From sequence record DRR723986_3397: a DNA stretch of 40,019 nucleotides; one strand, written 5' to 3'. Positions 11,944-31,197 of the stretch are shown here, in pieces. Numbering within the stretch: the first letter of the stretch is position 1; each line of letters starts with the position of its first letter. The notes below the pieces were generated by a model. The model was not told the DNA's origin. It saw only the letters and a program-made list of their open reading frames with translations, and did no database searches. The position numbers and the translations under genes were made by a program.

Positions 11944-14532
11944 ATGCGTTTAGATCGACTCACCACCAAGTTTCAGGAAGCTTTGGCCGACGCCCAGAGC
12001 CTGGCTGTGGGAAAAGACAACCCCACAGTTGAACCTGCACATGTGTTGTTGGCCATGCTCAAGCAGGGCGAGGGGTCTGTTCGCGGCGTCATCAGCAAGG
12101 CGGGCGGTAACCCGCAGGTGTTGGTCAAAGGCGTTGAGGCCGAGGTGAACAACCTGCCTCAAGTGGCCAACAATGCCGGTCAAATCCAGATTGGCAGCAA
12201 ATTACAAGCTGCCTTGAACCTCACTGACAAAGAGGCGCAAAAGCGAGGCGACCAGTTTATTGCCAGTGAACTGTTTTTGCTGGCTTGTTTGCAAGACAGC
12301 ACCGGGTTGGCCAAGGTCATGAAAGAGGCGGGCTTGAATGCCCAGTCGTTGAACACCGCAATTGAGCAGGTGCGCGGTGGCGCAGCTGTCGACAGCGCCG
12401 AGGGTGAAAGCCAGCGCGAAGCTTTGAAAAAATACACGATTGATTTAACCGAGCGCGCCCGGATGGGCAAGCTGGATCCCGTCATCGGTCGCGATGACGA
12501 AATTCGTCGTGCCATTCAAATTCTGCAGCGCCGAACCAAAAACAACCCTGTGCTGATTGGCGAGCCAGGCGTGGGAAAAACAGCCATTGTCGAAGGTCTG
12601 GCCCAACGCATCGTCAATGGCGAGGTACCCGATACCTTAAAGAACAAGCGTGTGCTGGTGCTGGACATTGCTTTGTTGTTGGCTGGTGCCAAATACCGTG
12701 GCGAGTTTGAAGAACGCTTGAAAGCGGTGTTGAAAGACATCGCAGCGGATGAAGGTCAAACCATTGTGTTCATTGATGAAATTCACACCATGGTGGGTGC
12801 TGGCAAAGCCGAGGGTGCAATTGATGCAGGCAACATGCTAAAACCTGCATTGGCCCGCGGTGAATTGCATTGCATTGGCGCCACCACCCTGGATGAATAC
12901 CGCAAATACATCGAAAAAGATGCCGCACTTGAGCGTCGTTTTCAGAAAGTACTGGTCGGTGAACCCAGTGTAGAAAGCACCATTGCCATTTTACGTGGCC
13001 TGCAGGAGCGCTATGAGTTGCACCACGGGGTCGACATTACCGACCCCGCCATTGTTGCGGCTGCGGAGCTCAGCCACCGCTACATCACCGATCGCTTCCT
13101 GCCTGACAAAGCCATTGATCTGATCGATGAGGCTGCAGCCCGAATCAAGATGGAAATTGACTCCAAGCCTGAGGAAATGGACAAGCTGGATCGCCGGATC
13201 ATTCAGCTGAAAATTGAACGCGAGGCTGTCAAGCGAGAGCAAGACGAAGCCTCTAAAAAGCGCCTGGCCTTGATCGAGGAAGAAATTGTTCGACTTGAGC
13301 GCGAGTACGCAGACCTCGACGAAATCTGGAAAAGTGAAAAGGCCGCAGTGCAGGGCAGTGCGGCCATCAAGGAAGAAATTGATCACATTCGCGCAGAAAT
13401 CGAGCAGTTGAAACGCAAGGGCGATTGGCAGAAAGTGTCTGAACTTCAGTACGGCAAATTGCCCGATCTGGAGAAAAAACTGAATGATGTGAAAGACAAC
13501 GAGGGTGGAGAAAAGAAGCCGAACAGGCTGTTGCGCACCCAGGTTGGCACCGAGGAAATTGCAGAGGTGGTTAGCCGCGCAACCGGCATTCCAGTGAGCA
13601 AAATGCTGCAAGGTGAACGCGACAAGTTGTTGCAAATGGAAGCTGCCTTGCACCTGCGTGTCGTCGGGCAGGACGAAGCCGTTACTTTGGTGTCTGACGC
13701 CATTCGCCGTTCGCGTGCCGGTCTCTCTGACCCCAACAAGCCCTTGGGTTCGTTCCTGTTTCTGGGCCCCACCGGTGTGGGTAAAACAGAGCTGTGCAAG
13801 GCGCTGGCTGGCTTCCTGTTTGATTCGGAAGACCATCTGATTCGCATCGACATGAGTGAGTTCATGGAGAAGCACAGTGTGAGCAGGCTGGTGGGTGCGC
13901 CTCCAGGGTATGTAGGCTACGACGAAGGCGGTTACCTGACCGAAGCCGTGCGCCGCAAACCTTACAGCGTAATTTTGCTGGATGAGGTGGAAAAGGCTCA
14001 CCCCGACGTGTTCAACGTGCTGTTGCAAGTGCTGGACGATGGGCGTTTGACCGATGGGCAGGGCCGCACTGTAGACTTTAAAAATACAGTCATTGTGATG
14101 ACATCCAACCTGGGTTCGCATGAAATTCAGCGTTTGGCAGGTCAGGATGGCGAGGTGATTAAAGCTGCGGTCATGGAAGAGGTGAAGCAGCACTTCCGTC
14201 CGGAATTCATCAACCGGGTGGATGAGCTGGTGGTGTTCCACGCTTTGGACAATGCGCACATTGCAAACATCGCCCGCATTCAGTTGCAGCGTTTGCAGCA
14301 GCGCCTGGCCAGCCGCGACATGCGCCTGGAAGTGAGTGATGCGGCATTGGCCGAAGTGGTCAAGGCAGGTTTTGATCCTTTGTATGGTGCAAGGCCTTTG
14401 AAGCGCGCCATTCAGCAAATCATCGAGAACCCGGTTTCAAAAATGATTCTGGAAGGCCGGTTTGGGCCGAACGATGTTGTGCCGGTTGATTTCAAGGAAG
14501 GGGCGTTCACCTTTGAACGGGTGGTTCACTGA
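11944..14532 (+). CDS. clpB: ATP-dependent disaggregase ClpB
   Basis: Two AAA+ modules ([16 protein letters not shown]), coiled-coil middle domain, [17 protein letters not shown]. Confidence 0.99.
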
Positions 14533-14543
14533 GTGCAGCTATT

Positions 14544-14635
14544 TGAAATCGCATAGCTGTGCTCATCGAAGTCGCGTGGCTTCTTTATTCGAAGCCGCGT
14601 AGCTTCGTTCTTCGAAGCCGCTGAACTCTGCGCCT
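14544..14635. repeat. Degenerate 23-bp tandem array, four units, core YGAARYCGC
   Basis: Units start at 14544, 14567, 14590 and 14613; units 2-3 are GAAG..CTTC mini-hairpins. Confidence 0.7.
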
Positions 14636-14835
14636 GAGAAGCCTTGCCCCAGTCACTTCTCTCGCAGCCCCGCCCAACGTGAATATTGCGGCGATGGCCG
14701 TTCTGATCCCGTTCGGAATGGATGCCGCAAACGCTAACGCGTCTTGCGGAGCCGCTTCGCGTCTAATCCATTCCAAACAGGGAACGGCGGGCGGGTCTTG
14801 AACGTCGCGAGTAAGTGACTGTGGCAAGGCTTCTC
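14636..14835 (-). repeat. Fold-back element 1 (200 nt; REPIN/MITE-like or ncRNA)
   Basis: About 30-bp terminal inverted arms (14636-14665/14807-14835), inner stems GCCGTTC/GAACGGC and GGAATGGAT/ATCCATTCC, two-hairpin cap. Confidence 0.75.
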
Positions 14836-14884
14836 CAGCGCGAATATTGGTTCTTGCGTTGACCAGTGAATTCGAGACGCTGCT

Positions 14885-14916
14885 GCGGACTTGCGGACTT
14901 GCGGACTTGCGGGCTT
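14885..14916. repeat. 8-bp tandem repeat (GCGGACTT)3 plus GCGGGCTT
   Basis: Read directly from the sequence. Confidence 0.9.
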
Positions 14917-14942
14917 CGCTGAGCGATGGTGTTCTTTATTCA

Positions 14943-15115
14943 CGGTGTAGTGTCGCGATCATCTTGCCGATTCAGGTGGGCTTCCCGCTTGATGCACGGC
15001 GAGGGGCGACTCCGCAAGGAGTCGATGCGAAGACGCGTTCGCGTTTCGCATGCCCCAAGCAAGCAATCAAGAAGGGATTAAAGCCCGCCAAGGCGGGATG
15101 ACGTGACCTGCACCG
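14943..15115 (+). ncRNA. Fold-back element 2 (about 175 nt): candidate structured ncRNA or ssDNA element
   Basis: Nested stems with five G-U-compatible pairs on the + strand, closed by a three-way junction with a GCAA-loop hairpin and a bulged-G hairpin; transcription not shown. Confidence 0.5.
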
Positions 15116-15160
15116 GGAACAATACACGAGTTCCAACGCCTTGCCCGCCAAGGCGGGATG
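15083..15160. repeat. Two identical 18-bp REP-like palindromes GCCCGCCAAGGCGGGATG
   Basis: Copies at 15083-15100 and 15143-15160; CCCGCC-AA-GGCGGG palindrome. Confidence 0.85.
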
Positions 15161-15192
15161 CAACAATGCACAAGCGTCGCAATGCCCACGTA

Positions 15193-16071
15193 TCAATGCG
15201 CTGCAGCGTACATTGCCTCGCCAGCCTCGACAGGGTTACCGGTCTTGTTGAACACCTCAAGCCACACACCATAGTTGTGGACTGTGGGGTCTTGCCAAGG
15301 GTGAAACCCAGGTTTGAAGTAGTTCAACAATTTGGGCAGCAGGCTGCTATATAGCCCTTTTGGACCCAACAGCCAGACCAGGCCTTTCGAGTACATTTTG
15401 AACCGTGTCCAGCCCTTGAAACCATCGGTGCCCAGAATAATCCAGGTGAATACCAGCGTGTGTAAGGTGAAGTTGAACATGGCGTGGGCCATGGCAAGGC
15501 TTCGCTTGAAATAACCTACTTTGGCCACTTTCTGCATGACATCAAATGCCACAGCCTTGTGTTCCATTTCTTCAATGGCATGCCACGCCAACATGGCACG
15601 AACCCGATGATCTGCGCCGGCCATCACTTCCTTGCGGGCAAAAAACATCTCGGCCATCATGGCTGTGAAATGCTCCAACGCTGCGGTCATGGCCAGGTTG
15701 TACTCTGGTGACAGAACCTGCAAACGGCGGTTCATGATCTTCGTAATCACATGCAACATTTTGTCCACTGGCACACCTTGCTCTTTCAGGCGCCTGTTGT
15801 AGTCGGTGTGAACCTTGCCATGTTGACCTTCCTGAAAGGAAAAGTCTTTCACTGCTTTCAACAACTCAGGATCGGTGATTTTGTCTTTGAAATTGCGAAC
15901 GCTCGAGATGAAATAACGCTCGCCGTCCGGAAAACTCATTTGAACACCATCAATCACGCGGGTTTTGAACGCGTCTCCATCCATCCAATAGCGGGGGATG
16001 TCCTTGTCAGTGATTCCAAAATCCAGATCTTTCCGGACTACGATGTCTTCTTTGAACGATGTTGTTGTCAT
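15193..16071 (-). CDS. Predicted metal-dependent hydrolase (ferritin-like Metal_hydrol family)
   Basis: SFPDGERYFI, QEGQHGKVH, ALEHFTA, WHAIEEMEHKAVAFD, YFKPGFHPW; ATG at 16071 with GGAGG RBS. Confidence 0.88.
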   Translation of the reverse strand: MTTTSFKEDIVVRKDLDFGITDKDIPRYWMDGDAFKTRVIDGVQMSFPDGERYFISSVRNFKDKITDPELLKAVKDFSFQEGQHGKVHTDYNRRLKEQGVPVDKMLHVITKIMNRRLQVLSPEYNLAMTAALEHFTAMMAEMFFARKEVMAGADHRVRAMLAWHAIEEMEHKAVAFDVMQKVAKVGYFKRSLAMAHAMFNFTLHTLVFTWIILGTDGFKGWTRFKMYSKGLVWLLGPKGLYSSLLPKLLNYFKPGFHPWQDPTVHNYGVWLEVFNKTGNPVEAGEAMYAAAH

Positions 16072-16195
16072 GACTGCCTCCTGCTGCATTGTGTGAATAA
16101 AGATTACCGAATCACCACAACACACGATATGATTTGAAATGACAAAAAGGGAAGAATTCGCGACAGGTTTAATCGTTCGCGTCACAGGAGGTTTG

Positions 16196-17200
16196 GTGGA
16201 AACCATCAATTTTCAAATGCTTGCAAGCCTTGCCAATGCTGCACGGCGCTGCGACATTGATTTGAACAGTGTGATGCAGGAGCTGAAACTGGAAATTGAC
16301 ATGACCGGGGACCCTCGTCGGCGCATGTCTTTGTCGTGCTTTAGTTCTTTGTTCTCCGCAGTTGAGGCACGCAAACCAAGCCAACACTTTCCGCTGGTGT
16401 TTGGTGATTCTTTCAACTTCGATGGTTTGCCCGAGTTGGCCACTTTTGTGACCAGTGCGTCTACTCCTCAAGAGGCCATGAGAGTATTGGACTGGTCCCC
16501 CAAGCTGCTTCATCCGAATTTGCATTTTACAACGCTCAATTTGGGTAGCGAAGCGGCGTTAGAGATCAGGGTGCCCGATCCGGAAGGCGTAAACGAAGAC
16601 CTGCCAGGATTTGTCGAGGCGGCCATGTCTGCTGTTTTGAAGTTTATCCATCTTCTCAGTCCTGGCTCACACCTGATCAAGCGCATCGAATTTCGCCATG
16701 CGCCATTGACCCAGGAGTCGGCCTATCTGGAGGTGCTCAAGACCACGGTGCTGTTCAAGCAGGCCCACAATCGCTTGGTGGTGGATTCGTCTGCACTGGA
16801 TTTGCCCTTGCCTGGGGGTATTCCTTCAGCACATCACAAGGCGCAGGCTGTGATTTTGAACCGCTTGTTACCGGATGTTGAAGAGCAAACCCTTGAAAAA
16901 CAAATCAAGCGTTTGTTGAGGTCGCGTTTGAGTATGTTGAGTGAGCCAATACAGGTGATAGCCGAGGTGCTGCATATTCACCCGCGTACCTTACAGCGAA
17001 GGCTGAAAAGCGAGGGCAAGTCGTATGCTGAAATTCTGGGGGCTGTTCGCCACGAACTGGCCCGCGAGATGCTGAAAGGCTCGGTACTCGACATTGAAAC
17101 GATTGCAGCGAATCTGGGTTATTCCGATCGTCGAAGCTTCACCAGTGCATTCTTGAAATGGCAGGGGGTCTCTCCGCGGGAATTCAGAAATCAGCAGTGA
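16196..17200 (+). CDS. AraC family regulator (OruR/ArgR-like N-domain)
   Basis: C-terminal HPRTLQRRLK..G and IAANLGYSDRRSFTSAFLKWQGVSPREFR; divergent from the hydrolase; start uncertain (16139 or 16196). Confidence 0.9.
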   Translation: METINFQMLASLANAARRCDIDLNSVMQELKLEIDMTGDPRRRMSLSCFSSLFSAVEARKPSQHFPLVFGDSFNFDGLPELATFVTSASTPQEAMRVLDWSPKLLHPNLHFTTLNLGSEAALEIRVPDPEGVNEDLPGFVEAAMSAVLKFIHLLSPGSHLIKRIEFRHAPLTQESAYLEVLKTTVLFKQAHNRLVVDSSALDLPLPGGIPSAHHKAQAVILNRLLPDVEEQTLEKQIKRLLRSRLSMLSEPIQVIAEVLHIHPRTLQRRLKSEGKSYAEILGAVRHELAREMLKGSVLDIETIAANLGYSDRRSFTSAFLKWQGVSPREFRNQQ

Positions 17201-30752: not shown

Positions 30753-30765
30753 AAACGACAGACAT

Positions 30766-30793
30766 AAAAAAAGCCGCCCTCGGGCGGCTTTTT
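30766..30793. terminator. Bidirectional intrinsic terminator
   Basis: AAAAAAAGCCGCCC-TC-GGGCGGCTTTTT between convergent genes. Confidence 0.9.
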
Positions 30794-30809
30794 CACGTAG
30801 ACGCGAGTA

Positions 30810-31019
30810 TTACAGCGCAGTTACGTTTTCAGCTTGTGGGCCTTTCTGACCTTGAGTCACAGTGAAAGACACTTTCTGGCCTTCAGCCAAGGTTTTGAAG
30901 CCGTTGCCCTGAATGGCGCTGAAGTGTACGAACACGTCAGGACCGTTTTCACGGGAAATGAAGCCAAAGCCTTTGGATTCGTTGAAAAATTTAACTTGAC
31001 CGGTTACGGTATCAGACAT
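30810..31019 (-). CDS. Cold-shock protein (CspA family), 69 aa
   Basis: RNP1 KGFGFI, RNP2 [18 protein letters not shown] at 31019. Confidence 0.96.
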
Positions 31020-31197
31020 AGCAATATCCTGGATTTCTGAATTGAACAAAATAGCTAAAAAACTGGGTGAAATTCGAGAAACAGAACTATTGCTTAAGCG
31101 GTTTGCCTGAATTGAACTGACCTGAAGTAGCGCCAAATTTTTTTTGCTGAAGTCAGTTTAGGCTTTTCCTGATGCTTGTCAAGCAACATTTTCAGTT

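Follow-up and report, generated by a model that had tools for sequence, protein, structure and literature searches.

According to the parts of PMC10969869 considered here, transcripts of bacterial MITEs (transposable elements of the miniature inverted-repeat type) form stable stem-loops; in Neisseria, mRNAs bearing Correia elements are cut by RNase III, and ERIC sequences at gene 3' ends change mRNA levels. QMITE2 of Coxiella, described in the same parts of that source, is located in 3' untranslated regions (UTRs) and comprises 23-29-bp inverted ends and a 113-145-bp core, with a predicted fold near -113. Here we analyze a repeat of comparable kind found in a stretch of 40,019 nt from sequence record DRR723986_3397; the whole stretch is referred to as the window. 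The repeat, Element 2, occupies 173 nt (14943-15115, + strand) in a 660-nt spacer where clpB and the gene of a PF10118 hydrolase converge. An original prediction, made from the letters of the window, had listed eight stems in it, noticed that its non-Watson-Crick pairs are G-U on one strand only, and expected a functional RNA or a strand-specific single-stranded DNA (ssDNA) fold. We find that Element 2 is one copy of a dispersed, previously undescribed family of non-coding repeats and not a unique RNA gene. The nearest genome, G001, shares 84% of sampled words, and genome-wide statements below rest on G001 and its congeners. Our search of the literature found no description of Limnobacter intergenic repeats.

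Fold, distribution and covariation of the family

The minimum free energy (MFE) fold of Element 2 reaches -105.7 kcal/mol, the mean for 200 dinucleotide shuffles being -61.3 ± 3.9 (z -11.3); none of the shuffles folds as well. The reverse complement yields a weaker fold (-85.4 kcal/mol, z -6.9). All eight stems of the original prediction are present in the MFE fold, and the five non-Watson-Crick pairs of its four outer helices (1+1+2+1) proved to be G-U on the + strand without exception, as had been stated; four of the five lie in the outer stem. Covariance model R1, when run on the window, matches 14932-15126 with 179.1 bits (E 2.8e-40). Parts of the fold are listed in Table 1.

The family unit is about 175-200 nt long (173-200 measured), and the whole copy folds to a long rod. 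Copies folded together with their flanks share one architecture: a long copy-specific outer stem, an asymmetric loop, two middle helices with a bulge on the 3' side, and a branched tip. The tip, present in all copies and nearly invariant, combines a closing helix, GGGGC/GCCCC, with a three-way junction that bears two hairpins. At the other end, the outer 25-30 bp evolve fast and retain their pairing, which makes them the most variable and the most covarying part of the family; the ends of each copy are complementary, but their sequences vary with copy and subfamily and show the lowest conservation (the outer stem of Element 2 has 24-26 bp). Three subfamilies, A, B and C, differ in the sequence of the middle helices with pairing preserved, these helices being invariant inside subfamily B, and asymmetric loops and bulges hold the same positions across subfamilies. 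Among G001 copies the most conserved stretch corresponds to query positions 57-121. The core columns are invariant in alignments A1 and A3, where the unpaired core bases are nearly so, and in four sequencing runs, contigs that stem from other copies align to 14999-15060 exactly.

The two hairpins of the tip differ in how they vary. Hairpin b always carries one extra base in its 5' arm, of variable identity, and a variable 4-nt loop; in the subfamily B alignment 9 of its 11 pairs (helix 8) show no variation at all. In hairpin a the loop changes freely (GCTA, CTTA, GCCA, GGCA, TGAAA, GCA and others), so that the GNRA loop pointed out in the original prediction is present as GCAA in Element 2 but is no family feature. 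Coding capacity is absent: indels between copies are non-multiples of three (1, 2, 4 and 5 columns in the hairpin-a loop), and stem changes are compensatory, not codon-like.

G001 contains an identical (100%) copy of Element 2 and about 15 dispersed relatives at 75-92% identity (BLAST). With one genome taken for each prokaryotic species, a core-pattern scan gave 81 matches in 77 loci, which come from named Limnobacter, from metagenome-assembled genomes labelled Burkholderiales or Gammaproteobacteria, and from one 1.2-kb contig binned as Aquiluna. Model R1 returned 96 same-strand matches (49-184 bits, 92 sources), and the reverse strand at those places reached only 27-35 bits. Within Limnobacter the family occurs in 17 of 26 genomes, with 0-28 copies each, and is missing from the remaining 9; none of 137 genomes from 50 other genera of the same bacterial family gave a match. 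The repeat family is thus restricted to the genus Limnobacter. Plasmids and phages (BLAST) and viral contigs (core-pattern scan) contained no copies. Element 2 fits into no Rfam family either. At the gathering threshold, Rfam 15 matches the whole window only at 30765-31158 (cspA) and not on Element 2; in E-value mode, 14400-15300 gives chance-level matches only, none above 11.5 bits on Element 2, and six other family loci gave no matches.

Covariation was evaluated on 41 distinct subfamily-B rows aligned by sequence alone, for which RNAalifold predicts a consensus of 64 pairs. Paired cells amount to 97.2%, compared with 88.7% in column shuffles and 28-43% with slid partners. Double-changed cells number 232 (65.6 ± 8.3 in shuffles) and pairs with double changes 28 (18.6 in shuffles); neither value is reached in any of 500 shuffles. 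Because the rows are related to each other, comparison with shuffles overstates significance; partner sliding and the count of pair types both agree in direction. The mixed-subfamily alignment gives 105 double-changed cells, with 44.7 in shuffles. Covariation is located in the outer stem (22 of its 25 pairs) and in hairpin a (helix 7; 4 of 5 pairs, with pairing in 100% of cells), and the interior hardly varies, even at unpaired bases. Between species, orthologous copies such as those downstream of lysS have many stem differences and are still paired.

The same strand is preferred throughout. The more stable strand has the same orientation in 77 of 86 distinct full-length copies, and the sense strand is the more stable one in 23 of 25 copies of G026 and 14 of 15 of G001. 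In per-copy folds, internal G-U pairs outnumber 1x1 A-C mismatches 72:9 in G026 and 33:6 in G001. At consensus pairs the G-U:A-C ratio is 186:38 (58 clusters at 92% identity, one row each) and 129:38 with four majority-G-U columns set aside, with the same strand favored in every subfamily; the clusters are related, hence binomial p values are indicative only. In the complete genome G026, copies lie on both chromosome strands inside one replichore, and therefore replication skew does not set the G-U bias. The fold is thus conserved by compensatory change and G-U-biased on one strand. The bias in homologues, by which the original prediction was in part to be judged, extends to the whole family, and we infer that the fold acts as a single strand, be it RNA or ssDNA.

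Would a plain DNA palindrome produce the same picture? Its arms would be kept complementary by template switching or gene conversion, and the G-U excess would reflect mutational asymmetry. Several observations from the loci fit such a process. Internal deletions and 3'-arm duplications are frequent, microsatellites occur at the hairpin bases, sister species have an unrelated long-hairpin family in some of these spacers, as if the sites were permissive, and a neighboring relative, Element 1, has its interior inverted in genome G007 while its arms keep their mismatches. However, self-correction of the arms would remove asymmetric loops and bulges, which instead keep their places from one subfamily to the next, and the unpaired core is nearly invariant. 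Strand-symmetric mutation predicts equal numbers of G-T and A-C, contrary to the ratio of 129:38, and copies on both strands of one G026 replichore rule out replication skew. C-to-T deamination on the non-template strand of the convergent neighbor would probably bias the ratio in the opposite direction. We therefore regard a palindrome shaped at the DNA level alone as distinctly unlikely.

A folded DNA strand is harder to set apart, as strand bias and covariation fit ssDNA equally. The folded strand, exposed for example at replication forks, would then be a substrate moved by a structure-specific enzyme (an HUH endonuclease or a tyrosine recombinase), with the tip as the recognition module. 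The pattern of hairpin b, an invariant stem with a variable loop and an extra base, suits this idea: protein-recognised ssDNA hairpins, such as integron attC sites and IS200/IS605 ends, resemble it. In 17 of 25 G026 copies the sense strand is the leading-strand template, with an origin near gidA, a terminus and symmetric replichores assumed; this trend is too weak to use and we set it aside. The missing transposases and linked genes dealt with below count against the ssDNA substrate, and so does the lack of copies in the phage, plasmid and viral collections. We hold it to be unlikely, and place it first among the rivals, before the DNA-level palindrome and, last, a free-standing small-RNA gene.

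Position at gene ends and possible function

Copies of the family tend to lie where genes converge. Among 23 G026 copies with Pfam-supported neighbors on both sides, 18 are convergent, 4 tandem and 1 divergent; G001 has a similar pattern, with one sense tandem case. The 3' end of a copy usually faces the stop codon of the convergent gene at 20-130 nt. No recurrently linked gene was found among the Pfam-checked neighbors, which are unrelated housekeeping genes, and this speaks against the ssDNA reading. From a crude open reading frame (ORF) analysis it appeared that copies are always antisense to the nearest gene (76 of 89 copies); we rejected this rule, since most copies lie in convergent gaps, where such orientation is undefined.

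Free-standing small-RNA genes, each with its own promoter and a product of about 175-200 nt acting in trans or antisense to the 3' end of the convergent gene, would be in line with the size, stability, covariation and strand bias, all of them like those of structured non-coding RNA, and with the convergent stop codon usually near the 3' end. Small RNAs from Coxiella MITEs are also reported in the parts of PMC10969869 considered. But a scan for sigma-70-type promoters found sigma-70-like sites upstream of 4 of 85 copies on the sense side and 2 of 85 on the antisense side, and none in 14300-15400. No U-tract terminator follows, 5' flanks vary from locus to locus, congeners have anything from 0 to 28 copies, with 9 of 26 genomes lacking the family, and no Rfam match exists. 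We consider such genes very improbable. Because copies are dispersed, with 0-28 per genome, few sigma-70-like sites lie upstream, and no Rfam family applies, the part of the original prediction that expected a single RNA gene of about 175 nt is unsupported; what stood up is the strand asymmetry, now seen as a conserved, covarying and G-U-biased fold across the family. The absence of a promoter is compatible with an ssDNA substrate as well.

We tentatively favor the reading of Element 2 as a palindromic repeat of MITE-like kind, with selection on its single-strand fold; it would most likely act at gene ends, within read-through RNA. Lacking its own promoter, the element would have its sense-strand RNA made by read-through from a co-oriented neighbor or from other outside promoters. 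The stable structure might then serve as a gene-end module, being either a block to 3' exonucleases or a processing site and also a barrier to transcription that runs antisense into the convergent gene. In the 70 nt after the hairpin, C makes up 32.5% and G 19.7%, with C exceeding G in 75 of 85 copies, and such a C-rich, G-poor tract after most copies would suit Rho loading.

A number of points weigh against this reading. No U-tract follows the hairpin in the scan of Element 2, nor is there one in the flanks of 85 copies on either strand; as a canonical intrinsic terminator the hairpin therefore does not qualify. Part of the C-rich 3' flank coincides with the antisense of the neighboring coding region, which could skew composition on its own. 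The four tandem cases of G026 are all antisense to both neighbors, so that no known gene would transcribe the sense strand there. At the locus itself a terminator-like site of clpB (14568-14593) and Element 1 precede Element 2, and read-through from clpB may be weak. The sole true RNA library comes from a strain in which Element 2 is missing. G-T wobble also stabilises ssDNA hairpins, so the bias cannot separate RNA from DNA. As for mobility, the features that mark a typical MITE are weakly developed: conservation is lowest at the termini, and a search for a parent insertion sequence, which covered the Y1 and TnpB families, yielded none. The only candidate for a target duplication, GAA flanking 14871-15120 in comparison with G007, involves one indel and is equally possible as deletion microhomology.

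The four sequence runs consist of assembled contigs, which carry no strand, end or level information. Coverage from the RNA library of run X11 at 15006-15139 was considered as a sign of expression and rejected: it derives from contigs of other copies and gives no sign of transcription of Element 2 or of either strand.

Turnover, companion repeats and the clpB-hydrolase spacer

The family behaves as a non-autonomous, MITE-like element, with copies gained, lost, truncated and flipped between species. Nearest-neighbor identity is 89-94% for 22 of 25 copies in G026, which indicates a lineage-specific burst; with values of 77-88%, copies in G001 are older. The amplified unit of G026 is larger than the hairpin, consisting of a separate repeat module, then a microsatellite, then the hairpin. 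In the spacer between purT and an ABC-F gene, the copy has different orientation in G001 and G026. A comparison of filled and empty states at the dnaB locus is not clean, other genomes having diverged elements there.

Clear turnover and the copy burst in G026 would also suit an ssDNA substrate; the search for two enzyme families speaks against it. RAYT/Y1 transposase (PF01797) was found in 0 of 4 Limnobacter genomes, with 6 of 14 control genomes positive, and TnpB (PF07282) likewise in 0 of 4, with matches in controls. A more far-reaching idea, which we regard as rather improbable, is that the family represents a new class of structure-defined mobile element. Its signal would be the Y-shaped three-way-junction tip on one strand, and drift or rebuilding of its arms would be tolerated provided that pairing persists. 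It would spread by an enzyme or host pathway not yet linked to transposition, and its copies would double as orientation-specific barriers to antisense transcription.

Other repeats accompany the family. A separate repeat of about 500 nt with GAATTCAAACGGGCAGGTTTTCTTGA, a long imperfect palindrome (loci L136-L152), has 12 matches in G001, 5 in G007 and no Rfam match; its left arm is fused upstream of many subfamily-B hairpins (L005, L006 and G026 copies) and is part of the amplified unit of G026. Sister species without the family have a different long-hairpin repeat of about 180 nt, which is matched 25 times in G003 and at least 40 times in G020, and not at all in G001, G007 or G026. Its copies are 86-95% identical to each other (L193/L202 of G003, L194 of G020) and occupy some of the spacers used by the Element 2 family, downstream of lysS and clpB (L116, L123; G020, G022); in each of G003 and G020, 3 of 15 loci considered have flanking genes in common with loci of the Element 2 family. 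Long hairpin repeats at convergent gene ends thus appear to be a recurring feature of Limnobacter.

Two arrangements with ORFs deserve mention. At L002 757-1679 (contig C50 of G001), two head-to-head copies bracket an ORF between lysS and a transglutaminase-like gene. A RAYT-like gene between the inverted copies was considered and rejected, as the ORF encodes a lipoprotein-like protein of 142 aa without a Pfam match. The arrangement recurs in several genomes, with only a 267-nt spacer and no ORF at this place in G003, and it resembles a composite insertion. At L161 689-1885 and L011 1726-2922, an ORF beside one copy matches FA_desaturase and, in its C-terminal third, an ISL3 transposase (E ~2e-8); it may be a fusion or an insertion remnant.

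Features of the window are given in Table 1.

Table 1. Element 2, its structural parts and surrounding features (positions of the window)
Feature	Positions	Strand	Remarks
Element 2, full copy of the branched-hairpin repeat, subfamily A	14943-15115	+	MFE fold; identical copy in G001
Outer stem, 5' arm, three helices split by single bulged bases	14943-14968	+	pairs with 15092-15115
Asymmetric internal loop GATTCA opposite AA (15090-15091)	14969-14974	+	position constant in all subfamilies
Middle helices, 5' strands GGTGGGCTTCCC, CTTGATGC	14975-14995	+	pair with 15063-15089; 3'-side 4-nt bulge TTAA
Conserved core: GC/GC mini-helix, closing helix GGGGC/GCCCC, tight three-way junction with hairpins a and b	14999-15060	+	
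Hairpin a, GACTCC-GCAA-GGAGTC	15008-15023	+	stem and loop variable, pairing kept
Hairpin b, ATGCGAA-G-ACGC / loop GTTC / GCGT-TTCGCAT	15025-15051	+	stem invariant
Outer stem, 3' arm	15092-15115	+	MFE fold
clpB, 862 aa, co-oriented upstream gene	11944-14532	+	Pfam AAA_2, ClpB_D2-small, Clp_N
Terminator-like hairpin and T-run after clpB	14568-14593	+	terminator scan, with its one site at 14568-14583
Element 1, divergent relative, opposite orientation	14626-14844	-	29-nt inverted arms 14630-14658, 14813-14841
Segment missing in related strain, whose contigs have 22 other letters between 14870 and 15183	14871-15182		runs X11, X13
TGCGGACT 8-nt tandem repeat, 5' leader of Element 2, three units and one variant	14884-14915	+	
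GCCCGCCAAGGCGGGATG second copy, partial duplication of Element 2 3' part (15083-15100), 60 nt downstream	15143-15160	+	
Predicted metal-dependent hydrolase, 338 aa, convergent	15193-16209	-	Pfam Metal_hydrol PF10118, E 1.3e-75

The stop codon of the hydrolase gene lies 78 nt from the 3' end of Element 2. Across 25 genomes the length of the clpB-hydrolase spacer ranges from 63 to 976 nt. It is empty in G003 and G021 (63-64 nt), holds Element 1 without Element 2 in G007 and both elements in G001, G013 and G018; G025 and G002 have internally deleted copies of Element 2, and G012 a 5'-truncated one. The segment missing in the related strain comprises the 8-nt tandem repeat, Element 2 and the 3' partial duplication. 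Both repeated motifs vary in number: G001 has six TGCGGACT units and the variant, as well as one extra GCCCGCCAAGGCGGGATG unit, and run X4 is 16 nt shorter in the tandem repeat. Other loci and other species, too, have copies followed by a similar, tandemly duplicated 3' arm. At the hairpin base of other copies the 6-8-nt microsatellites are different ones, rich in G and T on the 5' side, in C and A on the 3' side.

Element 1 has a related core, with an AAGACGC-loop-GCGTTT hairpin and a minus-strand R1 match at 14696-14789 (17.3 bits, E 0.012). In G007 the interior of 154 nt has been turned round: as reverse complement it is 97.4% identical, in forward direction 52.1%. The 29-nt arms keep their own mismatches, which indicates an in-place flip between the inverted arms; five other genomes have the orientation seen in the window. 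An Rfam match of Element 1 to MIR839 was rejected as a generic long-hairpin artefact (25.5 bits, cut-off 200). In five further genomes (L108, L109, L112, L122 and L126) the spacer carries unrelated inserted sequence of about 920-976 nt, possibly protein-coding. Far from this locus, the cspA match at 30765-31158 is a full-length match to the Rfam cspA thermoregulator on the minus strand (114.7 bits) in a betaproteobacterial window.

Significance and comparison with known repeats

Limnobacter is a common genus of marine and freshwater habitats. Its repeat family offers an unusually clean case in which a one-strand fold is preserved by compensatory change while the ends drift, the opposite of the usual logic of MITEs, where the ends carry the transposase signal. 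If RNA is what acts at convergent gene ends, the family would provide a natural system for studying the insulation of convergent transcription units. If ssDNA acts, it would point to a mobilising activity yet to be identified. The elements explain intergenic length polymorphism, such as the 63-976 nt at a single locus, as well as assembly breaks, and model R1 can be used for annotation of family copies.

Strand-specific ssDNA hairpins are known from attC sites and from IS200/IS605 ends. Like them, the Limnobacter family lies downstream of genes and retains extra-helical bases and wobble pairs, and its function would depend on one folded strand. In attC sites it is the terminal core sites that are conserved, around a variable centre, and the sites form arrays beside an integrase. 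In the Limnobacter family this layout is reversed, the centre being conserved and the ends variable, and the copies are dispersed beside housekeeping genes. In contrast to IS200/IS605, no TnpA or TnpB was found in the Limnobacter genomes searched (4 each). Derivation from IS200/IS605 as a PATE, or as a remnant of TnpB omega-RNA, was accordingly rejected (PF07282 in 0 of 4 genomes, PF01797 in 0 of 4).

With REPs, BIMEs and REPINs, as far as the parts of PMC3116915 and PMC3733652 considered here describe them, the family shares its nature of extragenic palindromes at gene ends, often clustered with other modules, and the formation of hairpins on one strand; in REPINs, two inverted units make up a long hairpin. 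The Limnobacter unit of about 175-200 nt is, however, roughly 5x longer than the 20-40 nt given there, and its copies count in tens, not hundreds. No conserved GTAG or CGTC tag is seen in the family in alignments A1 and A3; a GTAG at 14947-14950 of Element 2 is missing from the other copies of these alignments. Membership in the REPIN/RAYT system was rejected on the grounds of no Y1 transposase in 4 genomes, the excessive length of the unit and the missing tag.

The comparison with Correia, with ERIC/IRU of enterobacteria and Yersinia, and with QMITE2 is closer. According to the parts of PMC10969869 considered, all of them are, like the Limnobacter family, small, non-coding and dispersed, with variable copy number, and all reside in intergenic or 3'-UTR sites with proposed effects on mRNA processing or stability. 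In all of them, too, the whole element is one very stable stem-loop; next to the values given for QMITE2, Element 2 has an outer stem of 24-26 bp and a fold of -105.7 kcal/mol. By this analogy we infer that a role in gene-end RNA, comparable to that of Correia, ERIC and QMITE2, may apply here. The differences are equally distinct. Element 2 is GC-rich (57%), whereas MITEs are typically AT-rich in the same parts of that source. In contrast to Correia, ERIC and QMITE2, the Limnobacter family has its termini least and its centre most conserved and possesses a conserved three-way-junction tip, and no clear target-site duplication or cognate insertion sequence was found for it. Taken together, the family is best grouped with the structured bacterial repeats of the MITE and REP type.

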